A DNA stretch of 64,000 nt from an uncultured Candidatus Saccharibacteria bacterium (GCA_964585065.1 CAZPCB010000001.1:162866-226865), one strand, 5' to 3'. Counted from the first letter of the stretch, positions 66 to 60,237 are shown. Translations and numbers: made by a program. Notes: a model not told the origin generated them from the sequence alone.

Positions 66-129
66 TGTTGTAAATTTAGGTAAAGCAACACTACATAACC
101 TTGAGTATCAATCAAAAGTTAAAAAGATG

Positions 130-133
<4 letters not shown>
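66..133 (-). promoter_or_regulatory. 23S precursor processing stem, 3' trailer half (pairs with 3120-3189)
   Basis: Plus 69-83 (gtaaatttaggtaaa) and 121-133 (aaaaagatgagtt) are exact reverse complements of 3175-3189 and 3120-3132. This is the classic RNase III-type stem enclosing the mature rRNA. Confidence 0.7.
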
Positions 134-3119
<2,986 letters not shown>

Positions 3120-3125
<6 letters not shown>

Positions 3126-3189
3126 TCTTTTTAAATTCTGATTTATACTTTTGGTGAAAGTAGTAAAATTGCATTTACCTAAATTTACT
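3120..3189 (-). promoter_or_regulatory. 23S precursor processing stem, 5' leader half
   Basis: Complementary to 69-83 and 121-133 (15 and 13 nt exact). Confidence 0.7.
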
Positions 3190-3499: not shown

Positions 3500-4111
3500 T
3501 CAGCTGGTCTTGATGCCCTCAATGGCTTTGATCAGGATCTGGACTTGAGGCCAAATATTGACCTGAAACCATCTCATCCACTGATCAAAGTTCCTCAACA
3601 GCTTTTTTGACTCCGAGTCTAGAGTCGTCACCTGAGGTTGAGGAGCGGGCGGCAGGACCACCGGCGGGAGAGCGGGAGAAGATTGCTCTTGTCCTCGATT
3701 CCCACCAATGGTGATCATCTGGTCGATACCCAGGTCACCAGCAGAAATGGGAGAGTTGTCTCCGATACCGCTGGGCATGGGGTCGAACCCCATAACTCGA
3801 TATTGACCAGAGCGGACACCCTGTGAGGATACCACCCAGGTTGAGGAGAGAAAGTTCTCCTTGAAACCTGGAAGCTTCAAGGGCTGAGGGCGACCATCAT
3901 CCTGAATGAACAGGAAAATCTTGTTCGCGATGGGGCAAGTATTGCCCTGCTCCACACGAACCCGAATGGTGTTATCCACGACATTGTCGCTGATTGACAC
4001 CGACGGAATGCACTCCTGCTGACTCATCAACGAATCTTCTGCCAGAACAGGCATCCCGAGAAGAGATGTTCCGATCATGGTGGAAGCGAGAAGTGTCTTG
4101 AGAACGGACAT
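3500..4111 (-). CDS. Secreted hypothetical protein (signal peptide MSVLKTLLASTMIGTSLLGMPVLA). Coding sequence is ~50% GC versus ~30% in flanks.
   Basis: Long ORF. Start chosen at the internal Met that begins a signal-peptide-like segment (the ORF track allows 4177). Pro/Gln-rich linker. No recognisable domain. Confidence 0.55.
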   Translation of the reverse strand: MSVLKTLLASTMIGTSLLGMPVLAEDSLMSQQECIPSVSISDNVVDNTIRVRVEQGNTCPIANKIFLFIQDDGRPQPLKLPGFKENFLSSTWVVSSQGVRSGQYRVMGFDPMPSGIGDNSPISAGDLGIDQMITIGGNRGQEQSSPALPPVVLPPAPQPQVTTLDSESKKLLRNFDQWMRWFQVNIWPQVQILIKAIEGIKTS

Positions 4112-4194
4112 TGTGAAAGGTTCACATACGATATATATATACCATAAAATAGCAAAAATGTCAATAGTTATAGGCATTTATTCAAAACTGTTAT

Positions 4195-5937
4195 GTGACA
4201 CTCTATCCTATGATTTGTCTAAATATATGTTATACTGATACTAATTATATGATATATATTATGGTGCTCCAATTATTTAAAAAAATTCATCCTATTTGTT
4301 ATTTTGTCTTATTTGCTAGTATAATATTTCACTATAAAATTGGTATACAAAATATATGGCCTGGCAATGTCGACTGGTTATTACAAGCATCTGATTGGCC
4401 TCAGCATTATTTGGGTTGGGAATTTTTTAGGAGAACTCCTTGGCATTTTCCTCTTGGAGATTTTCAAAATGTATTATATCCGGCTAATACAAATATTGGA
4501 TTTACTGATAGTATTCCCCTTCTGGCTATATCATTAAAGATATTTACTGGTATATTACCGAATATTTTTCAATATATTGGATTATGGATATTTATTAATA
4601 TTGTATTGCAAGGGTATTTTGCTTATCTTATTTTTAAAAAATTACAGTTCTCAACTATCTCTGCAATTGTGGGAGGTTTATTGCTTCAATTTACTCCGGC
4701 TCTTATTGCTCGTGTCAATCACCCTGCTCTTACCGCGCATTGGCTTATTTTGTTTGTTATATACAATTATATTATTTTTAATAATACCAAAAAAGATATT
4801 TATTTGAATTTCGCTCCTATTATTTTAAGTAGTCTGATACATCCCTATTTAGCTATTATAGTTATTCCTCTTAGTATTGCAAATTTACTGAGATTCAAAT
4901 CTCTCAAGACACAAGTCATCGCAATACCTATCGCTATAATAACACCCATATTGCTATGGTATTGTATTGGATACTTTGTAGATTATTCTATTGGAGATTC
5001 TCAGAGTTTAGGATATTATTCAGCAAGTTTACAAACATTCTTTAATCCGCTATATGCTATTTGGGATCATCATTTAAGAGATGCTTCTTTGTGGCTTGAT
5101 CCAAGAAATCAAAGATATATGCTCCAATATGAAGGTTTTGCATATCTTGGAGTTGGTATATTAATAGGAGGATTTATTGCGATAGTATTTATATTAAAAA
5201 GATTAATCAGTAATTATAAAAAGATAATACCTTTTATTAAAAAGACTATTCTATCTGGTATTCATAATAGAACTATTATTTTTTGGTTAGGTATTATCGT
5301 CATCTCATTATATGCAATTCTATATCGAGATATTGTCACAATGTATTTAGAACCTTATGCCCGACTTCCATTTATTCGTATATTTTTAGATAAAGCTGGG
5401 GTTATTCGTGCTAATGGGCGATTTATCTGGCCATTAATGTATATTGTCATTATTGGAATTATATATTTGATTAATAAAATATTCTCGAAAAAAGCTTTGT
5501 ATATATTGATTATATTATTAGGTATTCAAATGATTGACTTATCTCCTCTATTAAAACTTCAGCTATTCAAAGAAAAGGAAATTGTATCGGTAAAATCAGA
5601 GTCAAGTATATTTTGGCAAAATACTATTAAAGAATATAAAGGCGTATATATGTATCCCGGTGGTCAAAGAAGCTATAAAAGTCTTGATGATTATATTATA
5701 TTTACATTCTGGGCTGCCCAGAATAATATTCCTATTAATGCAGGCTATTTATCCCGATATGATTTACCTATAGTGCAAAAGTTTAATGTAGAAATTGAAG
5801 AAAACATATTAAATAATAAACTTGATCCAAATATCTTGTATATTACAACAAAAGATCATAAAAATTTATTTCAAACTGCCAGTAAAAATACCAACAGGGT
5901 ATTATCTGAATCTGATGATTATTATATCATTAAATAA
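4195..5937 (+). CDS. Large polytopic integral membrane protein (>=12 predicted TM segments), possible GT-C-type glycosyltransferase
   Basis: 580-aa ORF, highly hydrophobic with W/Y-rich loops (WPQHYLGWEFFRRTPWHFPLG). No specific family recognised. Confidence 0.5.
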   Translation: MTLYPMICLNICYTDTNYMIYIMVLQLFKKIHPICYFVLFASIIFHYKIGIQNIWPGNVDWLLQASDWPQHYLGWEFFRRTPWHFPLGDFQNVLYPANTNIGFTDSIPLLAISLKIFTGILPNIFQYIGLWIFINIVLQGYFAYLIFKKLQFSTISAIVGGLLLQFTPALIARVNHPALTAHWLILFVIYNYIIFNNTKKDIYLNFAPIILSSLIHPYLAIIVIPLSIANLLRFKSLKTQVIAIPIAIITPILLWYCIGYFVDYSIGDSQSLGYYSASLQTFFNPLYAIWDHHLRDASLWLDPRNQRYMLQYEGFAYLGVGILIGGFIAIVFILKRLISNYKKIIPFIKKTILSGIHNRTIIFWLGIIVISLYAILYRDIVTMYLEPYARLPFIRIFLDKAGVIRANGRFIWPLMYIVIIGIIYLINKIFSKKALYILIILLGIQMIDLSPLLKLQLFKEKEIVSVKSESSIFWQNTIKEYKGVYMYPGGQRSYKSLDDYIIFTFWAAQNNIPINAGYLSRYDLPIVQKFNVEIEENILNNKLDPNILYITTKDHKNLFQTASKNTNRVLSESDDYYIIK

Positions 5938-46768: not shown

Positions 46769-47968
46769 TTAATCTTTGTTTATAAGTCTACTATGTCTTG
46801 ACATTACTAGAATAATTAATCCCGCCAAACCTAATACTGCCAATCCCATATATCTATCATTACGCAGAAATCCAAATTTAGATGCACTTTGTATATTTGC
46901 ATCAAGTGGTATCCTATCTTTATTAATAGTAAAAGATTTAGTCGCATTAGCATCTCCATTAATATCCTTTACTACTATATCTATTTTATAAGCCTTATTG
47001 GGATCAATATCAAGAGAAAGAGAATTACCACTGCCATCCTGTACTTCATCATTAACTCTATAGGTATAAGATAATTTTGCATTTTGCCTAATATTATCTA
47101 CATCACTTGATATTAATAGTTGAATCGCTTCATCAATTTTCAAATCATCAGTATAATCAATAGGAGTATTATTCTTATTATTGACGAGCGAGACCCGAAT
47201 TGCAGGCTGTTTAATCGCAATAGTATTTATTCCATAATACCTGGTATATCCTGTTATTCTATCTCTTGCAATAGCTTGTATGAGATAACTTTTATCATAT
47301 CCTTTATTCTCCGTAAAGGTAATTTTATTATTATTTTGCTCTACTGTATTACCATCAATTTTCCATTCAATTGCATATTGTGATATGGGTAACTCTGTCG
47401 CAACAGAAATGGTATCCCCTTTTGCAGGATTCAAAGGTCTATAGTCGAGGGAGATTTTATCAAAAATATCTAAATTAATACTTCCCGTTTTAATAACTCC
47501 ATTAGCATTGACTGCAACTTCAATTTGATAAGTACCTGATTCTGTAAATGTATAAAAGAATCCCGTTTTATCAATTCCATTTGCTTCAAATACTACTTTT
47601 TCTCCCTTTTTAATTCTCCAATTATATTGAGCTCCATCAAATACAAACCCTTTATCTATATGATAATTAATAGTTGCAAAATCAACTTGTTGTTTGGTAA
47701 AAAGATATTTATTTTTTACTACAAGTTTAATCTCCCCTGTTGATGATTTCTCGGTATAATAACTATCTGCAAAACTTTGCTTAATATAATTATCAATAAG
47801 AGTATTAGCCTCATCTTGAGTTTTTGGGTCATTATTGGAAAGAGTGGATTGGGGAATAATACTTGAATCAGTATTGGTAGTACTAGTATCCTGTGCCAAT
47901 ACTACTGATGAGCTCAGTAGTATTGAACCTATCAGTAATCCCGCTATTATATATTGTGAATATTTCAT
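46769..47968 (-). CDS. Secreted surface protein with beta-sandwich-like repeats and C-terminal TM anchor plus basic tail
   Basis: Signal peptide. C-terminal GLAVLGLAGLIILVMSRHSRLINKD. No LPXTG. Confidence 0.5.
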   Translation of the reverse strand: MKYSQYIIAGLLIGSILLSSSVVLAQDTSTTNTDSSIIPQSTLSNNDPKTQDEANTLIDNYIKQSFADSYYTEKSSTGEIKLVVKNKYLFTKQQVDFATINYHIDKGFVFDGAQYNWRIKKGEKVVFEANGIDKTGFFYTFTESGTYQIEVAVNANGVIKTGSINLDIFDKISLDYRPLNPAKGDTISVATELPISQYAIEWKIDGNTVEQNNNKITFTENKGYDKSYLIQAIARDRITGYTRYYGINTIAIKQPAIRVSLVNNKNNTPIDYTDDLKIDEAIQLLISSDVDNIRQNAKLSYTYRVNDEVQDGSGNSLSLDIDPNKAYKIDIVVKDINGDANATKSFTINKDRIPLDANIQSASKFGFLRNDRYMGLAVLGLAGLIILVMSRHSRLINKD

Positions 47969-48021: not shown

Positions 48022-48666
48022 TTATCTTTTTACTCCTACTGGTTGAGGCTGCTGGCGACGATTCAATCCACGCATATTACTCACAACTTCTGATACACTG
48101 AGAGATTGCCTCCATTTATTAATTGAATCTTCAAATTTCTCATTATCTTCTTTGATTTGTTTTGCTCTTGCTCGATGAGCTTTTATATGAAGCCAAGCTT
48201 TAATAGTCCAGGTTGGGGATAAATCTCCAATCCATGGAATAGCCTCTATAACTCCAGCTATTATAAGCCCTACTGTTTTTTTCCAACCAAATTCCATAAT
48301 ATATTCCCCTGTCTTATCTAGCATATACTTACTAGCCTCTTGAGTTTTACGAGCTAAAGCTTGTTGAATTTTACTTTGTGCTGGACTGGTATTACGGGAA
48401 TTACGAGATAAGCGCATTAATTGTCTAATGGTATTGACTTGATACAATTTTAGATTAGTATTATAGATAGTAAGATAGCTATAATATATGGCACAAAAGG
48501 CAATATCCGTCATAATAGCTATCGCATCTACTACAAAAGATCCCACAATACTAATTACTTGAATAGCTGGAATTAAATCTATTACAAATAGAATTAATCC
48601 AAAAAAGTCCCACATTATGGCAAATCCGAGATTGATATATAACCACATTCCATTTAATGGCTTCAT
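48022..48666 (-). CDS. Hypothetical membrane protein (214 aa)
   Basis: 3-4 TM N-terminal half, basic C-terminus. Confidence 0.4.
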   Translation of the reverse strand: MKPLNGMWLYINLGFAIMWDFFGLILFVIDLIPAIQVISIVGSFVVDAIAIMTDIAFCAIYYSYLTIYNTNLKLYQVNTIRQLMRLSRNSRNTSPAQSKIQQALARKTQEASKYMLDKTGEYIMEFGWKKTVGLIIAGVIEAIPWIGDLSPTWTIKAWLHIKAHRARAKQIKEDNEKFEDSINKWRQSLSVSEVVSNMRGLNRRQQPQPVGVKR

Positions 48667-51156: not shown

Positions 51157-52758
51157 CTATAACATACTGTCACTAATAGGAATTCCTATCGGCACACTAT
51201 CAAGTCCCTCCGGAGATACAACAATAATATTATTCCATTTATACCCTAATCCTTCAAATACTCCTGGAGAGGTCACATAGCGTTTCTTACCCTCAGACAT
51301 GATATAAACTTCCCCTCTGCCCGAGGCTCTCAGAATCACTCCGTCACGAAAATATACAGCCGGTCCCTGCTGATAAGAATTCCATTCAGCCCCTGATACA
51401 TATACTAAATCCTTATAATTATATTGAGTATTGAATATTTCGGGACTTGGTATGGGGCGCCTTTTCCCCGCTTCCAAAACCTCTATTCCTGTTGGATTAT
51501 CTCGATTAACCAATAATGTTCCATCTGGATAGGGGCGAGATTGCATAATAGGTCCAATTGGATGAGATATAGCAAGAGTCCCATCAGCAATAATAGTAAT
51601 ATTATTCCACTTATAGCCTAAGGCCTCAAAAGTAACGGGGGATGGAATATGTCTTCTTTGCTGATTACTAATTACATATACATCAGGGTTATTCTTTTCT
51701 CTTACCAACATTCCTTCCCTAAATGTAAGAGCTGAAGCTAAAGGATAAGAATCCCACTCGGCACGTGTGACATCTAATACATCTTTCCAATTAAAACGAG
51801 AATTAAAAACATCAGGATTTACGAGAGGCCTAATACTCCCATTCTCGAGATAACCAACCCCCGTATCTGTTCTTAACAATGAACCATTGGGAAAGGTTCT
51901 AATATCCGTAGTATCTGGGAATAAGGCTAATTCAGTTGCATTAATACTAATCACATTTTTCCCTCCAATATTACCCGTAGGAGTTTTTATCCCATTTTGA
52001 ATAGTATAAAGACGACCATTATCATCTCGATACAGCGAATTATCATAATATTGATTCCACTCTTGAGCTCGATTCCGAAGCCAGCTCATATCTACCATAT
52101 TAGTATCTCCATTTCCAGCTTCTACAGCTCCATGATCAGTAAGTCGAAAGCCAGTATAATTAGAACTATATGCCTTAGTATAAAAATTCCAAATAGGTTC
52201 AGTCACATAATCAGTTGGGGCAATACTATTAGTTGAACTAAGCCATCCAGATAATTTAGCTAAAGATTGTTTCATAGCTTCTGGTACTGTTGCATAGCCA
52301 CTTCCATAGCGACCAATCAAAGAAACTCCTATACTTTGATAATTAAAGTTATCTCCCGTACGATTTACATAAAGATGAGCTCCTCTTACTCCATTTTGCC
52401 CCATTCTCCCCTGATAAATACTCCCATCGCGAGCAATTAGATAATTATACCCTATATCCCCCCAACCATTATTACGGGCATGTGTAGTGAATATTGAACG
52501 AATTATTTGTCTCGGGTCAAGAGAGTCACTATTAAAGTCAGCTAAAGCCGTATCATGTAATAATATTCTCTTTATCTGAAAAGTATTATTAGAATTTGGT
52601 GGCCAAGCATTGAGAGTATAGGTATTATCATCTGTCATTGCCCAAGTATTACGAGATTGTATATTGGGGGTATTCGCAAAAGTGGGTAGTGGGAATATTA
52701 AGGCTATTCCAAAAAAAATCACCCATAATATTGATCGCAAATATAATATCCCCCTCAT
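51157..52758 (-). CDS. Secreted N-acetylmuramoyl-L-alanine amidase (Amidase_2/PGRP fold) with four C-terminal ~55-aa repeats
   Basis: Signal peptide. LLHDTA...GWGDIGYNYLIARDGSIYQGR. Repeats of the same family as in the S8 protease. Confidence 0.75.
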   Translation of the reverse strand: MRGILYLRSILWVIFFGIALIFPLPTFANTPNIQSRNTWAMTDDNTYTLNAWPPNSNNTFQIKRILLHDTALADFNSDSLDPRQIIRSIFTTHARNNGWGDIGYNYLIARDGSIYQGRMGQNGVRGAHLYVNRTGDNFNYQSIGVSLIGRYGSGYATVPEAMKQSLAKLSGWLSSTNSIAPTDYVTEPIWNFYTKAYSSNYTGFRLTDHGAVEAGNGDTNMVDMSWLRNRAQEWNQYYDNSLYRDDNGRLYTIQNGIKTPTGNIGGKNVISINATELALFPDTTDIRTFPNGSLLRTDTGVGYLENGSIRPLVNPDVFNSRFNWKDVLDVTRAEWDSYPLASALTFREGMLVREKNNPDVYVISNQQRRHIPSPVTFEALGYKWNNITIIADGTLAISHPIGPIMQSRPYPDGTLLVNRDNPTGIEVLEAGKRRPIPSPEIFNTQYNYKDLVYVSGAEWNSYQQGPAVYFRDGVILRASGRGEVYIMSEGKKRYVTSPGVFEGLGYKWNNIIVVSPEGLDSVPIGIPISDSML

Positions 52759-52760
52759 AA

Positions 52761-54704
52761 TTAAGGCAAAGGTCCTACTGGAATTGACTGATCAATCATA
52801 AATCCATACTGCAATGTATCATTTGTAACTACCCCAAGAGCTAACATTGCCTCTGGAGAAAGTCCAGATACACGATTCGTAAATATAGCCGGTCCTGATT
52901 CCATAATTGTAGCTACCAATTTTTTTCCATTGGCGGGATTTGTCACCAAAACCTTACGGCCTCTATGCCAATTTTTAGCGGTATTATTAAAATCTGTACT
53001 ACGAGTACGTCCTCTCCATTGATCAGTAGCATATTCATAAACCTCTTGTACTGTACTTCCTGAATTATGAGATTTAGGAGAAGCTGCTATAGATGGACTA
53101 TCTACACCTCGCTGAGATACAATTAGACTATTTCCATCTTTACCACTATATGCAATAATTTCTCCATTTATAATAATCCAACCCGTATTAGGATAATCTG
53201 ACACATTAGCAAGAGGTATTCTATTGGCAGAAGTATCTATATTTTGAGTAAGCGTACTCGTAGCCTCATACCATCTTACATAATTCCAACGCATAGTAAT
53301 ATAATATTTTTCTTCTTCTACTGAGAATGGAGCATAACTAGAATTGAGACTTCCTCCTGGACATGATAAAGCAAATGCCCCCCCACTTTTCAATAATCCA
53401 TTTTGGGCTGAAAGTGGCGTAGAGGCTCTTCCATAATGATCACCACTTGTTTCATTACAATCGCGGGCAAGATGCTGTTCACGAGCTGTTCTACCACTTG
53501 TAGCTGGGATAGCATATCCGTCTAAACTAGCGGCTTGAATATCTGAGAGAGCAGATCCCATAGCATTAGAATTAAATTCATCTTCAGATACTGCTGTTAC
53601 ATTAGCCCAATTATATCCCCGGGCGGCAAATATTTCGGGACTTGGGATACCTCGTTTCAATTCTCCTTCAATTACATATACCCCTCCGCCAAAAGATATT
53701 AAAGCACCATTTCTAAATCCAACTCTTCCTGCCTTTGTATATTGATTTATAACACTATCTGGTAATCTCAGTACGGAATCCCAACTATATCCTTGACTTG
53801 CAAAAATTTTAGGACTAGGAATATATTGTAAGCTCCCATCATTAGCTACGCGATATATAGGCCCAGCAGTACCGATGAGAGATCCTTCTACATATCGTTT
53901 TACTGTATTAAAGGCTCCAGATTCAGGAATAATAGATAATTCAAAATCTGTAGCTCGCTTTACTTGTCCCCAATTAAGTCCATAGCTCTCAAAAACTGCA
54001 GGAGAAGTAATAGGCTGCCGCACATTATTCTGCATCATAAATACTCCTGTAGCACTAGATATTAATAACCCATCGGGATAAAATTCATTAGCTCCTTGGG
54101 GATATGTATTCAGATATGCCTCTGAGACATCAATCAGAGATTCCCAACGATATCTTGCTTGAAATATAAGAGGACTAGGAATATATCTTCTCTGCCCATT
54201 TTTAATCACATACACTTCCCCTCCTGGTCTTACCAATAAACTTCCATTGGGATGTTTGGAAGCTGTAGTTAAGCCAGGTCCCTGAGGCTGAGGAGCAAGT
54301 TCCGCATCACTTACTGCAATTACATTAGACCATTTATACCCCTTTTGAAGAAAAGTACTCGGAGAATCAATAGGCAATCTCTGCCCATCAGAAATGACAT
54401 ATACCGAACCTCCGTTAGATAATAATGATCCATCTCTATATGTCATTTGTGGACCATTGGGCAATGCATCAATTTCCGTCTGAGTAGTAACTACCAAATC
54501 ATCCCATCTAAATTGAGACCGAAGCATATTAGGAGACTCAATAGGGCGCTTTTGTCCATTATCTATATAATAAACTTTGGGGTTATTAGTAGATTTTAAT
54601 AATATTCCATTAGGAAAGCTTGGGCTACTCGCATAACTCATTACTGGGAATACCCATATCACACATAAACTCAATACTAGACTATATGTTAATTTTTTAT
54701 TCAT
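52761..54704 (-). CDS. Secreted protein: ~6 N-terminal copies of the same repeat, a Cys-containing middle, and a C-terminal RlpA-like double-psi beta-barrel domain
   Basis: Signal peptide. KVLVTNPANGKKLVATIMESGPAIFTNRVSGLSPEAMLALGV resembles RlpA/3D-domain DPBB. Confidence 0.6.
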   Translation of the reverse strand: MNKKLTYSLVLSLCVIWVFPVMSYASSPSFPNGILLKSTNNPKVYYIDNGQKRPIESPNMLRSQFRWDDLVVTTQTEIDALPNGPQMTYRDGSLLSNGGSVYVISDGQRLPIDSPSTFLQKGYKWSNVIAVSDAELAPQPQGPGLTTASKHPNGSLLVRPGGEVYVIKNGQRRYIPSPLIFQARYRWESLIDVSEAYLNTYPQGANEFYPDGLLISSATGVFMMQNNVRQPITSPAVFESYGLNWGQVKRATDFELSIIPESGAFNTVKRYVEGSLIGTAGPIYRVANDGSLQYIPSPKIFASQGYSWDSVLRLPDSVINQYTKAGRVGFRNGALISFGGGVYVIEGELKRGIPSPEIFAARGYNWANVTAVSEDEFNSNAMGSALSDIQAASLDGYAIPATSGRTAREQHLARDCNETSGDHYGRASTPLSAQNGLLKSGGAFALSCPGGSLNSSYAPFSVEEEKYYITMRWNYVRWYEATSTLTQNIDTSANRIPLANVSDYPNTGWIIINGEIIAYSGKDGNSLIVSQRGVDSPSIAASPKSHNSGSTVQEVYEYATDQWRGRTRSTDFNNTAKNWHRGRKVLVTNPANGKKLVATIMESGPAIFTNRVSGLSPEAMLALGVVTNDTLQYGFMIDQSIPVGPLP

Positions 54705-54737
54705 ATTTTAATATAATATTATATATTTATATAATAT

Positions 54738-54770
54738 AGTATATCATAAAATTATATATTTTGATATACT
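54738..54770. promoter_or_regulatory. 9-bp inverted repeat AGTATATCA-N15-TGATATACT in divergent promoter region (operator-like)
   Basis: Exact palindromic arms at 54738-54746 and 54762-54770 between the divergently transcribed RlpA-like and nitroreductase genes. Confidence 0.4.
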
Positions 54771-55656: not shown

Positions 55657-58600
55657 TTAAACTTGTTTCGTGCCTCGACAGTATGGAAATTTTGAACAAC
55701 CATAAAATTTTCCATATCTGCCTTTGCGCAAAATCATTTTTGATCCGCACTTAGGACAGGTCTTATCACTCGAAACTGCAGGGCTATCTTTAATATTATC
55801 ACTCACAGACTTTTCAACCAAGGTATAGCCCTTGCAATGACAGCAAAATCGTCCGTATCCAGTAATTAAGTCTGGGTCTCTAAAATCTTTGTATTCCCTT
55901 ATTTCTTTACATTTCGGGCATTCTTTCATCTCGCCATTTTGCAAACCCTCAATCGTTTCGTGAATGTGACTAATTACATTATTTTTTACAACACCATTTT
56001 TAATCAAGTTGCCGATTCTTTCATTAAGATTTGAAATCGGATCGTTGCCAATGTTGAATTTGTTTATTCGCAAAAATTTATATCCATAGCTTTCCAATAC
56101 TTTTTGTCTATAAACATCTCCGTCGGTGTAATAATCTTGGTAATTAAATTCGTTTACCTCATCAACATCTTTGAAGTGTTCCCTAAATCCGTCATATTCA
56201 ATTATGACTTTGTGTTCTTGGTGGGTCTCATCCTTGAAGACTAACAAAAAATCAACTTTATAATTCGGGTGGTTATATGTTTTATCAAACTGTTTCAAAT
56301 ATTTACCAAGCTCAAATTGTGGAATAAATTCTATATTGTCTTTATTTTTCTTCCAGAAGTCAGTTTGATAAAACCAGTTCATAACCTCTGGTTCCATTTT
56401 TGACTTCTCATCAGCTTCGCTAATGCTTCGTTCTTTTTTCGCTTCGTTCAAAATAAAAGAGTAATGCCTTATTGCCTCACCAATTGAGCCGTTGTATTTA
56501 TCAATCGGCTTACTTAAAACAAAGTTCATCGTTTCTTTGGCACGACTAAAGCCAACATTTAATCTCTGGGCTTTTATTTTTCCGTCTTCTTCAATATCAA
56601 CATCGTTCAAATCTTTAATGAAAACACCCCACAAATGATCATCTTCTTCTGTTGCAACCATTGAATAATATATAATATCCCTTTCTTCACCTTGGCAGGT
56701 GTCGAAAGTCATAATTTTTAATTTTAACTTGTCGTAAAAATAATCCTTTTCTGGAATTTTGCTTATTAACTCGACAAGCAATTTTTGCTGATTGGTGTGG
56801 GGTGTAATAATTCCAACACTTTGATTGCTATCAATTTCTTTTAATTTTTTCAGTTCGGAAATTATAAATTCAACTTCAAGCGTGTTGGTATTTTGTGCTA
56901 ATTCTTTTTTCCCGTCATGCTTAACAAAAGAAAACTTAATAACGTCGTCAATAGCTTTCCCTCTAATTTTCATCACTTGTAAGCTGTCTCGATAAAAATA
57001 TTTGTTAGAGTAGGAAATAATCTCTTTATACCCTCTAAAATGTTTTAGCAGTTGAGCGTTATAATTTGTTATAAATTCAAAAAACTCAAGAATAGAAGTT
57101 TTGATATTAAACTTCCCGAGTTTTACGAGGTTTATTCCTTCGCTTGAAACATTTTTAACAAAACAATCCCTGAGATTATTTAAATATTCTCTGTTTGTAT
57201 CGGTGCGAGCTTGAGCAGTTTTTACATTACTAAATTGTTTTTTGTCTCCAAGAATCAAAATCTTTTTTGCACGCAACAAAGCAGGAAATGCTTGGGCAAT
57301 GCTAACCTGCGAAGCCTCATCAATAATCACAAGGTCAAAAATCTCTGGCTCAAGCGGTATGTATTCCGCATAATCTCTTATTCCTGCCAATATACAAGGG
57401 AATGCTTCTTTAAGCTTCAAAAATTCATCTTTCGGGAATCTTTGTTTTGTTCGGATTATATCTCTTAGCGCTTTTGCAGTCGCTTTATTGTTTTGATAAA
57501 AATCAATCAATCGTCCGTCCAAAAGAAAAGTCATTTGAGCGGTAACAAGTGCCTCAATATTTTTCTTTTGACCAGCATAATTAAGTGTGGGAATACTATT
57601 AAAATCTTTCTCAACTTTCTGCTTCAAATTTATAAACCTGATCAATGTGTCAAAGTCGAGATCTGAAATTTTTACTAATTCATTTGAGCAAAAAGTTTTA
57701 AAAGAACCCAAATCAATTTTAAGTTTTTTTATTGTATTCGGGTATTTTGGCAAATTTGTATTTAAGAATTTTAAATCATCGCCAATTTGCATTAGGTTGT
57801 TTAATACACCTAAAAGCGAATCGTCATTTATTGTCTGATGAATAAATCTTAAATAATCAAAATTGATCTGATATTTTTCGTCCAATTTTGCCTTTAGTTC
57901 TTCGGCAAATTGATAAATTCCTAAAACTATTTTCAAATCCTCTAAATTTTTATGCGCTTCAATTTCCGAAGTTATGCTAAAAGATTTTTTAAATTCCTTG
58001 TCTAAATTTTCAATTTTTTCTTTTTTAAACGCATAGCCGAAAAGCCAATTTTTCTCTTTTTCGTAATTGCTTATAAAATCTCTTAATTTTTCTAACGAGG
58101 GCTCGTCAAAATTATCGAATGTTGACAATAGCACCAAATTATTGGTGTAAACTTCTTTAATTTTAGCAACAGAAGAAGAAAGGATATTTAATAACCACAA
58201 ATATTTTTGAAAGTTGGATATGTCTTTGAAGTCATTGATTGAAAAATTGAGCAATTCGAAAAGTTTTGCTTCTTTTTCTTTCTCGTCCTGATCAATAATA
58301 AGTTTATCTTTTAGCGACAAAAATATTTTTTTAAACTCTTCAAGCTCAATCGCTGATTCCGTTTGATTTAGAACCTCTTCAATTTCAACGGGGAAACCCT
58401 TATTTACATAATAGGATTCCAAGTCAAATAACTCGTGAATTTCTTTTAAATCAATTTCCTCATAAGCCAATATTTCGGCTTGTAAATCTTCCTTAAGTGT
58501 ATTGCCTGATTTTTCAATATTGCTCTCAAGTGTTCCATAATCTTTTTTAACGGCTCGATAATGCGTTTTAATATTTTCTACAGCTGTGGTTGCTAAGATT

Positions 58601-60237
58601 TGGCTGTATGTGCTTCCTGTTTTTCCGAGTCTCAAAATTGGATTTTGAAAATTTTTATCGAGGCGAACTTTATTCATTGTCTCGGTAATTTTTTCTTCTA
58701 CTACATCAAGGGCTTCTTTTTTATCTGACAAAACTAAAACTGATTGATTTTTCAGAATAGAATCAAAAACAATTGCGGTTATTGTATGACTTTTACCTGT
58801 TCCTGGGGGTCCCTCAACAGTTATGTATTTACAATCGTCTTTTCTAATCGCAGATAAAATTTGAAGTTGTTCGCTATTTAGCGGAATTGGACTATTGAAA
58901 ACTAAACGATCGCTTGTTTCAGTATCGTCCCATGATTCTTCAACGCTTGGATTAAAGGGCTGAGGATTTTTATGAATAAAATCCTCAATCAATTTATTGA
59001 AAGCTTCCCCCAAAACACTGTCGCCCGCCATGAGCAATTTTAATATTTCTTCGTAATCATTGACTAACGCCTCGTCTGATTTATCAAATAAAGCCAAGTA
59101 GCAATTATTTGAAGCTCTGACAAGAAGACTTTTTGCAATTTGTTGCTCGGAATTGTTTATATCTATGCTTTTATCAAGTTCAAACAAATTTGTTATTTCA
59201 CTCAATATTTCGCTGACCACATCTCTAAAATCGTTTTGATGTTGGGCTAAATAGATTATTCTTTCCGATATTATTTTTAAATTTCTCTTTTTACCTTTTT
59301 CTTGATTATATTCTTGAGTTATATACTCAAGAGCTTTTTTGTTTATATACACCTGCGAATCAAACTCAATTGTCAAAACTTCGTTTTGTTTTTCAATCCC
59401 AAATGGAATGTAAAAAATTGGGAATTTGGCATTATTGAAAGTTATATCGCAAAAATATAAATAAAATTCTTGTTTATCTAAAATGGTTCTGTTTCTCTCC
59501 ATTTCATATATTTCTGCGAACAAATCTCCGACTTGAAAACTTTCAAAGAATGAATGAATATTTAATTTGATGTCGGCAAGCTCAAAAACATCTTTCAATT
59601 GTTTTGAAATATCAACTTTTTCTTTTGCTAGCAAAAGTTTTACAACTTCAGAAATTTTGTTTTCCAGAGAGGAAGATAAAACTGCGGTTAGTTCTTCCTC
59701 CATTAAATAAATATTGTTTTCGTCACCAAGGTTTAAATTCTCTAAAGGTTTTTCAATATTGCTTACAAACGGCAAAACTAAATCTGTTTTTAGAATTTTG
59801 GCGGCAGCTTCAAGGGAAGTATTTAACGCTTGATCATATTCTTTTTTGTATAGAGTGGCTGATTTTTCTATTTCCTCGGCGATTTGTTCAAGGATTTTGG
59901 TAATTTGTTTGCTAGTTATTTTTTCCGTCTGCAATTTAACTAAATCCAATAAATTTTTGGGAATATTTGTCCTATAAACCCCTTTTGAAATTGTATTGAG
60001 AGTATTTTTATCAAATGCGTGGTCTATCGCTTTATTTACGAGATTATTAAAAGAAGGATATTTATTGAGATTTAATCCGACAAGCAAATTATTACTGCTC
60101 CTAAATTGAATAATTCTTTTTGGATTTTTTCTTTTATGGAAATCTGTTTCCAAGAAATCCATAAAATATTTGGCAACTTCTTTTATAAATACCAAACCAT
60201 TTTTATCTTCGATTTTAATATTTTCTTTAGTTGCCAT
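55657..60237 (-). CDS. 1526-aa multidomain protein: ~450-aa N-terminal region (DUF4011-like), Upf1/Dna2-like SF1 helicase, DUF559/Vsr-like PD-(D/E)XK endonuclease, zinc ribbon and topoisomerase-type C4 zinc finger
   Basis: Walker A VEGPPGTGKSHTITAIV. Motif II LVIIDEASQV...LILGDKKQ. Motif V/VI MTFDTCQGEERDIIYYS...NVGFSRAK. DUF559-like VDFLLVF...KVIIEYDGFREHF...LESYGYKFLRI. C-terminal CPKCGSKMILRKGRYGKFYGCSKFPYCRGT. Confidence 0.85.
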   Translation of the reverse strand: MATKENIKIEDKNGLVFIKEVAKYFMDFLETDFHKRKNPKRIIQFRSSNNLLVGLNLNKYPSFNNLVNKAIDHAFDKNTLNTISKGVYRTNIPKNLLDLVKLQTEKITSKQITKILEQIAEEIEKSATLYKKEYDQALNTSLEAAAKILKTDLVLPFVSNIEKPLENLNLGDENNIYLMEEELTAVLSSSLENKISEVVKLLLAKEKVDISKQLKDVFELADIKLNIHSFFESFQVGDLFAEIYEMERNRTILDKQEFYLYFCDITFNNAKFPIFYIPFGIEKQNEVLTIEFDSQVYINKKALEYITQEYNQEKGKKRNLKIISERIIYLAQHQNDFRDVVSEILSEITNLFELDKSIDINNSEQQIAKSLLVRASNNCYLALFDKSDEALVNDYEEILKLLMAGDSVLGEAFNKLIEDFIHKNPQPFNPSVEESWDDTETSDRLVFNSPIPLNSEQLQILSAIRKDDCKYITVEGPPGTGKSHTITAIVFDSILKNQSVLVLSDKKEALDVVEEKITETMNKVRLDKNFQNPILRLGKTGSTYSQILATTAVENIKTHYRAVKKDYGTLESNIEKSGNTLKEDLQAEILAYEEIDLKEIHELFDLESYYVNKGFPVEIEEVLNQTESAIELEEFKKIFLSLKDKLIIDQDEKEKEAKLFELLNFSINDFKDISNFQKYLWLLNILSSSVAKIKEVYTNNLVLLSTFDNFDEPSLEKLRDFISNYEKEKNWLFGYAFKKEKIENLDKEFKKSFSITSEIEAHKNLEDLKIVLGIYQFAEELKAKLDEKYQINFDYLRFIHQTINDDSLLGVLNNLMQIGDDLKFLNTNLPKYPNTIKKLKIDLGSFKTFCSNELVKISDLDFDTLIRFINLKQKVEKDFNSIPTLNYAGQKKNIEALVTAQMTFLLDGRLIDFYQNNKATAKALRDIIRTKQRFPKDEFLKLKEAFPCILAGIRDYAEYIPLEPEIFDLVIIDEASQVSIAQAFPALLRAKKILILGDKKQFSNVKTAQARTDTNREYLNNLRDCFVKNVSSEGINLVKLGKFNIKTSILEFFEFITNYNAQLLKHFRGYKEIISYSNKYFYRDSLQVMKIRGKAIDDVIKFSFVKHDGKKELAQNTNTLEVEFIISELKKLKEIDSNQSVGIITPHTNQQKLLVELISKIPEKDYFYDKLKLKIMTFDTCQGEERDIIYYSMVATEEDDHLWGVFIKDLNDVDIEEDGKIKAQRLNVGFSRAKETMNFVLSKPIDKYNGSIGEAIRHYSFILNEAKKERSISEADEKSKMEPEVMNWFYQTDFWKKNKDNIEFIPQFELGKYLKQFDKTYNHPNYKVDFLLVFKDETHQEHKVIIEYDGFREHFKDVDEVNEFNYQDYYTDGDVYRQKVLESYGYKFLRINKFNIGNDPISNLNERIGNLIKNGVVKNNVISHIHETIEGLQNGEMKECPKCKEIREYKDFRDPDLITGYGRFCCHCKGYTLVEKSVSDNIKDSPAVSSDKTCPKCGSKMILRKGRYGKFYGCSKFPYCRGTKQV

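Follow-up and report, generated by a model that had tools for sequence, protein, structure and literature searches.

How do two adjacent genes, whose products both look secreted and both carry the same tandem repeat, act on peptidoglycan, and on whose wall? The genes lie on the minus strand of a 64,000-nucleotide (nt) stretch of DNA (GCA_964585065.1 CAZPCB010000001.1:162866-226865, deposited as an uncultured Candidatus Saccharibacteria bacterium), the whole of which we refer to as the window. Protein A (533 amino acids (aa), 51157-52758, minus strand) comprises a predicted signal peptide, an Amidase_2 domain and 4.5 repeats. Protein B (647 aa, 52761-54704, minus strand) comprises a predicted signal peptide, six repeats and a double-psi beta-barrel (DPBB)-like domain that contains an inserted module. 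We consider it moderately probable that A and B are secreted and act jointly on peptidoglycan, with the amidase followed by the barrel.

Layout and secretion of the gene pair

The two open reading frames (ORFs) are consecutive, and only 2 nt separate the TAA stop of B from the ATG of A. This arrangement had been described in an earlier, sequence-only reading of the locus and is exactly as given there. That reading also placed signal peptides on both proteins, and the N-termini support it. Residues 1-28 of A (52675-52758, minus; ending FPLPTFA, then NTP) and residues 1-25 of B (54630-54704, minus; MNKKLTYSLVLSLCVIWVFPVMSYA, then SSP) each begin with charged residues, followed by a hydrophobic core at least 12 residues long and an Ala-X-Ala-like site (PTFA/NTP in A and MSYA/SSP in B). 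The signal-peptide calls were made by a hydropathy calculation only, and the same calculation found no further transmembrane-like segments in either protein. Mature B has two cysteines, C416 and C448, both in the Cys-containing middle region that had been noted before. A lipoprotein of the RlpA type was considered for B and rejected by inspection, as the N-terminal LSLC is not a canonical lipobox.

B is preceded by an AT-rich gap of 97 nt with a promoter-like site (54718-54747, minus), and no terminator-like site was found between B and A. Both results come from a consensus scan and are weak, but together they fit a single transcript. B and A form a conserved two-gene unit, which is probably expressed as one transcript.

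Protein A is a predicted amidase with an unusual tail

Pfam, matches in the PDB and alignment together define an Amidase_2 catalytic domain of the T7-lysozyme/PGRP/AmpD type at aa ~61-220 of A (52099-52578, minus), with H68, Y104, H209 and D218. The match to Pfam Amidase_2 (PF01510) covers aa 61-184 with an E-value of 3.2e-12 and 47.3 bits (cut-off 26), in agreement with the N-acetylmuramoyl-L-alanine amidase proposed for A from the sequence alone. Among PDB sequences, A matches PGRP structures (E-value 2.8e-10) and T7 lysozyme (E-value 8e-5).

In the alignment, H68 and H209 fall in invariant columns with T7 lysozyme (VHCSAT and RAHHEV) and AmpD (VHNIS and TGHCD), and Y104, in the sequence GYNYLI, is aligned to the GYHFII motif of T7 lysozyme. 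We take H17 and H122 of T7 lysozyme and H34 and H154 of AmpD to be zinc ligands, and Tyr46 of T7 lysozyme to be the catalytic tyrosine. The third zinc ligand is Cys in T7 lysozyme and PGRPs and Asp in AmpD. D218 of A is part of a GNxD motif kept in candidate phyla radiation homologues and lies 9 residues past H209, where the spacing is 8 in T7 lysozyme and 10 in AmpD; in the alignment it is offset by one column. Because both histidines and the tyrosine are kept and an Asp lies near the position of the third ligand, A would be expected to be an active zinc amidase.

Protein A resembles T7 lysozyme, PGRPs and AmpD in its match to the family hidden Markov model (HMM), its two histidines and its tyrosine, and it has an AmpD-like Asp close to the third-ligand position. 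It differs from them by an extension of ~20 residues after the barrel-facing His and by its 4.5 C-terminal repeats, and the Lys shared by T7 lysozyme and AmpD is not conserved in A, which has Asn/Gly there. As an amidase A is ordinary; it is the tail that is unusual.

Protein B ends in a divergent double-psi beta-barrel

The C-terminal domain of B consists of two parts separated by an insert. The N-terminal part (aa 387-481, 53262-53546, minus), defined by alignments and the structural model, holds an LPATSGxTxxE motif (P400, G404, E409), C416/C448 and a YYITMRWNY strand with R472 and W473. The insert of ~90 aa (aa 482-572, 52989-53261, minus) was recognized by its absence from compact family members and by its phrog and Foldseek matches. 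The C-terminal part (aa 573-647, 52764-52988, minus; KVLVTNPANGKKLVATIMESGPAIFTNRVSGLSPEAMLALG) contains N589, E602, G604-P605 and G614, and was delimited by hhalign, Foldseek and a predicted local distance difference test (pLDDT) of 94-97.

An AlphaFold model of the domain, built from 16 sequences, has a pLDDT of 77.8 overall and 94-97 over the last 70 residues. The best Foldseek matches of this model in the PDB are DPBB proteins from five families, namely PA4485, the p97 N domain, a fungal loosenin, kiwellin and the designed mkDPBB (probability 0.99-1.00, E-values 4e-3 to 4e-2); the match to PA4485 (4avr) has an E-value of 4.4e-3 and a target TM-score of 0.51. Comparison of the family profile with the barrel of E. 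coli RlpA by hhalign gave a probability of 61% over 45 columns. Here the family stretch VLVTNPxNGKxxxAxxxExGPxxxTxRVSGLSPEA is aligned to a stretch of E. coli RlpA (34 letters), and the register of RVxxLSxxA is unambiguous. Of 21 compact relatives, two reach Pfam DPBB_1 (best E-value 9.3e-4) and another Barwin. When the PDB was searched by sequence with full-length B, with its 72-aa C-terminal piece and with the barrel profile, chance matches only were returned, such as antibody chains and integrin, and PA4485 had an E-value of 0.79. No second copy of the barrel was found within the window.

In combination, the evidence gives moderate support to the prediction that the C-terminal domain of B is a DPBB. 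Both the model and Foldseek give the fold whose absence the sequence-only reading had named as counting against it. Within a known superfamily, this barrel represents a branch that is divergent and lacks annotation, in which the active-site position is changed and an insert is present.

The insert itself matches phage tail-fibre, baseplate-wedge and virion-structural families (phrog_11439, tail fibre, at an E-value of 5.8e-6, as well as phrog_708 and phrog_4406). The Foldseek matches of the B model include phage baseplate and tailspike chains because the insert resembles phage segments. It is absent from compact family members and, among the relatives examined, occurs only in the Paceibacteria-type clade.

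Conserved residues and comparison with RlpA and expansins

The RlpA of P. aeruginosa uses Asp168, and E. coli RlpA is inactive since that Asp is Ser (PMC9712689). Judging from the xxDLS motif noted in that paper and from the E. coli sequence, the position of D168 would be that of the Ser in RVISLS of E. coli RlpA, which is aligned to RVSGLS of B and would place G614 there. Given Gly at this inferred Asp position, lytic activity of B cannot be inferred from RlpA.

Residue conservation was computed over 161 family domains. Two positions are almost always acidic: E409, in the LPATSGxTxxE motif of the N-terminal extension (132/132), and E602, in the ExGP motif (158/160). R472 is kept in 159/160 domains, N589 in 154/158 and Q639 in 151/157, and several aromatic residues of the barrel family are also conserved. 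This conserved polar set looks like a functional site, and the pair of conserved carboxylates is what a glycan-cleaving enzyme would need.

With the septal lytic transglycosylase RlpA of P. aeruginosa, B shares the DPBB fold, secretion and the second-half motif VxVTNxxNGxxxxxxxx[DE]xGP...RVxxLSxxA. Both proteins also combine their barrel with a second module that targets glycan, namely SPOR in RlpA and, if the analogy holds, the repeats in B. RlpA requires denuded glycan and acts in tandem with amidases (PMC6895207), and B is likewise paired with an amidase, the product of which is the denuded glycan that RlpA needs as substrate. The partnership comes about by septal co-localization in the case of RlpA, whereas in the B/A family it is hard-wired as an operon or a fusion. 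Unlike RlpA, B lacks a SPOR domain (no Pfam match) and a canonical lipobox, and has an additional conserved N-terminal extension with the invariant Glu, as well as the ~90-aa insert in the barrel. The C-terminal domain had been proposed to be an RlpA-like lytic barrel. The barrel part of this proposal stands, by model, Foldseek and hhalign, while "lytic" is unsupported given G614 and the lack of a DPBB_1 match, a SPOR domain and a lipobox.

Expansins and loosenins (EXLX1/YoaJ, PcaLOOL12) are non-lytic wall looseners that also have a DPBB. B shares with them the fold and secretion and would, like them, act on a polysaccharide wall, and a loosenin is among its top structural matches. RlpA and expansins have an xxDLS motif in common (PMC9712689), and the LSPxA of B after the key position resembles it. 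In contrast to expansins, B has no second domain of the CBM63 type, and its target is probably peptidoglycan, where expansins act on cellulose or chitin.

The barrel family is linked to peptidoglycan hydrolases

Searching 1.84 billion cluster representatives with the barrel family profile retrieved 975 members at E-values up to 1e-3, of which 450 were found at E-values up to 1e-10. Carriers among the species genomes of GTDB are almost all Patescibacteria (Paceibacteria/Parcubacteria, Saccharibacteria, Berkelbacteria and Moranbacteria), with a few Actinomycetota. The nearest relatives of B, based on a C-terminal query, are from metagenome-assembled genomes (MAGs) of freshwater Paceibacteria (90-92% identity). 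Saccharibacteria members are distant, with 27-35% identity over the C-terminal part only and other architectures. Barrel proteins are named in their sources after the accompanying domain only, or as "hypothetical."

A total of 70 barrel members were scanned for domains, and many of them have a peptidoglycan hydrolase domain, namely Peptidase_C39_2 (12), Amidase_2 (10), M23 (9), Phage_lysozyme2 (8) and NlpC/P60 (6), along with Amidase_3, CHAP and Glucosaminidase. In 13 loci (L002, L005-L010, L013, L018-L021 and L031), with orthologues of about 50% identity, an Amidase_2 gene immediately follows the gene for a DPBB-like protein; a contig end truncates three of these loci (L009, L013 and L021). 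The orthologues of B in L002 and L005 align over the full length with 51-52% identity. For L018-L020 and L031, which are more distant, the protein encoded upstream is barrel-only, without detectable repeats, and the amidase has one detectable repeat. The two domains also occur in one chain. A Berkelbacteria protein of 1256 aa (L029:1009-4776, plus strand) combines Amidase_2, about 7 repeats and a DPBB-like domain, and a protein of 1361 aa from an unclassified Patescibacteria MAG (L024:1566-5648, plus strand) combines Amidase_2 and a DPBB-like domain, with no detectable repeats. The link between barrel and amidase is strong, though not universal. Domain content, conserved adjacency and fusions with peptidoglycan hydrolases all back the peptidoglycan role that the sequence-only reading had assigned to the pair.

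Two further arrangements were noted at these loci. In L018, L019, L020 and L031 (Parcubacteria and Moranbacteria), a gene for a ~350-aa protein with one repeat is located ~2 kb downstream of the amidase gene, on the opposite strand. In eight loci, mostly from Saccharibacteria MAGs (L044-L047, L049, L050, L053 and L054), distant barrels near position 5000 are fused to Phage_lysozyme2, M23, C39_2, Amidase_2 or GDSL domains. The gene order there is an ORF of 1000-1500 aa, the hydrolase and usually then an ORF of ~290-460 aa. Pfam gave no match for the flanking ORFs that were scanned (those of L044, L047 and L050), and the one in L053 has an M23 domain. A role of the Saccharibacteria relatives as type IV secretion hydrolases was considered and found no support, the conserved upstream ORFs of ~1000 aa being without any Pfam match.

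A shared repeat with an EccB-like fold

An HMM grown from one copy of the ~58-aa repeat detects six copies in B (aa 30-386) and four full copies plus one half copy in A, with per-copy E-values of 1e-23 to 1e-29; the sequence-only reading had counted about six N-terminal copies in B and four C-terminal ones in A, so its numbers hold apart from the added half. Those of B (53547-54617, minus; E-values 2.5e-23 to 8.4e-29) are at aa 30-87, 89-145, 152-205, 209-262, 271-325 and 330-386, and the full copies of A (51184-51894, minus) are at aa 289-344, 346-405, 410-468 and 470-525. The half repeat, at aa 237-260 of A (51979-52050, minus), serves as a linker and matches HMM positions 1-25 with an E-value of 1.7e-8. 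BLASTP of A against B gives an E-value of 2e-44. Copies share 20-51% identity, and those of A belong to two alternating subtypes, with the first resembling the third and the second resembling the fourth. The identities and the alternation rule out recent tandem duplication, and we regard the copies as old, as judged by their divergence. The working unit is probably a repeat pair.

The AlphaFold model of the four repeats of A has a pLDDT of 95 and a predicted TM-score of 0.85, with a beta-beta-beta-alpha-beta-alpha arrangement in each unit. When this model was compared with the PDB using Foldseek, the only significant matches were ten chains of EccB (E-values 3e-6 to 5e-4). A search of PDB sequences with the repeat profile gave chance matches only, none of them to EccB, and there was no match to the Pfam family T7SS_ESX1_EccB either. 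EccB is a core component of type VII secretion, and its periplasmic repeats of ~55 aa consist of a four-stranded sheet and two helices and weakly resemble PlyCB, a wall-binding phage protein (PMC4769845). The repeats of A and B likewise have a unit of ~50-58 aa with a small beta-sheet and two helices, occur in tandem and would be located in the cell envelope. PlyCB is the wall-binding subunit of the streptococcal phage lysin PlyC. Global superposition of EccB on the A/B repeats is poor (TM-score about 0.2), as the repeats are arranged differently. EccB also has a central core domain and a membrane anchor, whereas the repeats of A and B are appended to enzymes. Based on the model, the repeat appears to be an unannotated member of a known fold, and by analogy only, it may be a wall-targeting module. 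The fold link in turn gives independent but indirect support to the idea that EccB, through its periplasmic repeats, may anchor the type VII secretion machine on the wall.

The sole further carrier of the repeat within the window is an S8 protease (17718-19529, minus; Peptidase_S8 E-value 2.1e-34), which is 31 kb from the pair and has four copies at its C-terminus (17727-18431, minus; repeat HMM E-value 1e-58 for the whole protein). The sequence-only reading had placed this protease in one toolkit with A and B. The shared repeat speaks for that grouping, and the distance and a position beside murF-like and PBP transpeptidase genes speak against it. The subtilase gene is directly downstream of, and on the same strand as, the genes for the Mur ligase (murF-like; 19740-21047) and the PBP transpeptidase (21061-22842), so that this third repeat protein lies in a wall-synthesis cluster.

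Other proteins carry the repeat behind SpoIID+amidase, S11 DD-carboxypeptidase, beta-lactamase-fold or SH3 domains. As sampled, it is largely confined to Patescibacteria and some actinophage proteins. The repeat pairs of A and B match phrog_9616, a phage family of unknown function (E-value 1e-34), and resemble in structure small uncharacterized proteins of Rhodococcus and Streptomyces phages (BFVD A0A1I9SA71 and A0A345MGB2; target TM-scores 0.72-0.77). The module circulates in actinophages as a stand-alone protein of ~110 aa. A search of 37 repeats against Pfam at E-values up to 1 gave no match. The 58-aa profile retrieved 5 short fragments only from a set of 5.8 billion proteins, the word index of which is too coarse for so short a profile.

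The overall design is familiar from modular peptidoglycan hydrolases of Gram-positive bacteria and phages, which use SH3b, LysM, CW_7 or SPOR repeats. A and B share with these a signal peptide and tandem targeting repeats, A also shares a catalytic domain, and one repeat is likewise reused over several enzymes of one genome. The repeat family of A and B, by contrast, is absent from Pfam.

How the pair may act, and on which wall

The pair belongs to a Paceibacteria (Parcubacteria, candidate phyla radiation) bacterium and would provide it with two secreted peptidoglycan-acting proteins. In the model that we favor, the tandem ~58-aa repeats, with their EccB/PlyCB-type fold, would hold both proteins on the wall. 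Protein A would strip stem peptides off the glycan strands, and B would then apply its barrel, a divergent member of the RlpA/expansin superfamily, to the glycan bared in this way. This order would mirror that of amidase and RlpA at the Gram-negative septum. The barrel may either only bind or loosen the glycan, or cut it via a relocated acid, for which E409 and E602 are the candidates.

Several results weigh against this model. B matched no family of Pfam (E-values up to 1) or NCBIfam, DPBB_1 (PF03330) included. The fold match has an E-value of about 4e-3 and spans only ~60 residues, a shortness explained by the insert that splits the barrel. The column of G614 is Gly in 154/159 family domains (97%), Asp in 3 and Ser in 2. 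By our own motif reading, which is not an alignment, the Asp of the DLS motif that we take to be needed by EXLX1 falls in this same column, and an expansin-type mechanism for B is accordingly not supported by that reading. Six loci of the close clade (L011, L012 and L014-L017) have a B-type gene and no amidase gene in the fetched flanks. As for the repeats, peptidoglycan binding by those of EccB is a suggestion and not an experimental result (PMC4769845).

Whether the barrel cuts or binds is nearly balanced. Because of the conserved acid pair, we lean slightly toward B as a non-canonical glycan-cleaving enzyme. B could instead be a non-catalytic scaffold or activator that binds glycan by its repeats and an inactive barrel, and positions the amidase or switches it on. 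We regard this as unlikely, since the two acids are kept in 99-100% of members and, with the conserved Arg, Asn and Gln, are more suggestive of an active site than of a sugar-binding face, and a 647-aa secreted protein made of binding modules alone would be less economical. The idea has parallels in the LytM factors that control amidases while being catalytically dead, in E. coli RlpA, whose role is only structural, and in the stand-alone DPBB proteins loosenin and kiwellin, both fold matches of B, which are binders. It would also account for a barrel that is combined with hydrolases of every bond specificity, as an accessory binding module would be, and for the barrel-only protein that precedes the amidase in L018-L020 and L031. 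The near-universal Gly in place of the canonical Asp points the same way, as does the inactivity of E. coli RlpA with Ser at that position (PMC9712689). An amidase-coupled barrel without the acid of RlpA offers a clean test of whether a DPBB can cut by another catalytic arrangement or binds only.

The joint action of amidase and barrel leaves the choice of wall. The cell's own wall is the more likely target, in growth, turnover or daughter-cell separation, because the neighbors of the pair are housekeeping genes, the organism has genes for synthesis of its own wall (those for a Mur ligase and a PBP transpeptidase lie in the window) and the repeat is found on enzymes of own-wall maintenance. 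The sequence-only reading had raised use on host cell walls, in which an episymbiotic or predatory Paceibacteria cell would secrete A and B to breach the wall of another cell, with the phage-like insert and the repeats recognizing the foreign wall. The homology of the insert to tail-fibre and baseplate segments and the presence of the repeat in actinophage proteins are consistent with this. Fusions of the barrel to the "phage tail lysozyme" domain, Phage_lysozyme2, are frequent, and the barrel family is common in Saccharibacteria, a group known as episymbionts. Work cited in PMC12102498 reports that homologues of peptidases and lysozyme are essential for epibiotic growth of a Saccharibacterium. 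Those barrel members of Saccharibacteria are, however, distant from B and differently built, and the genes around the pair include none for a secretion system, a pilus or another contact-dependent function. Given, in addition, that the repeat decorates enzymes typical of own-wall maintenance, and that the organism makes its own peptidoglycan and has no known host, breaching a host wall appears distinctly unlikely. Still more doubtful is a bolder version, in which a phage-derived wall-piercing device was taken over by ultrasmall episymbionts. The insert and repeats would recognize the host envelope, the amidase would strip peptides, and the barrel would represent a new glycan-cleaving class with the acid moved from the Asp to the Glu of the N-terminal extension. 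The phage homologues of the insert and repeats, the tail lysozyme fusions and the two near-invariant acids are compatible with it.

Much of bacterial diversity is accounted for by Patescibacteria, and how they build, split and possibly breach walls is barely known. Two wall-related modules that are absent from Pfam and NCBIfam meet at this locus: a barrel family of about 975 cluster representatives, and a repeat carried by amidases, SpoIID-amidases, a DD-carboxypeptidase and a subtilase. A description of both would improve the annotation of many candidate phyla radiation genomes, and the locus should be useful to specialists in peptidoglycan and in these bacteria.

Genomic context

The genes flanking the pair encode SHMT, FolD, a nitroreductase and a helicase. 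The helicase, just upstream of B-A and beyond the nitroreductase gene, is a superfamily-1 protein of 1526 aa (55657-60237, minus) with AAA_11/AAA_12 domains and a C-terminal topoisomerase-type C4 zinc ribbon. Two other minus-strand genes encode proteins without a Pfam match, one of 399 aa that starts like a signal peptide and has a hydrophobic anchor at its C-terminus (46769-47968), and one of 214 aa that is a multi-pass membrane protein (48022-48666).

Near the start of the window is a complete 23S rRNA gene (123-3128, minus), for which the matched span is ~80 nt beyond the length of the Rfam model. No 16S rRNA gene adjoins it within the window, and the next upstream feature is a protein ORF (3500-4177). 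A 623-aa protein (14853-16724, minus) begins with a type IV pilin N-terminal methylation motif (N_methyl, E-value 1.7e-6), after which comes a long repetitive stretch with the pattern DGSSI(I/V)TG.F.GT..FG, and its size is far above that of a normal pilin.

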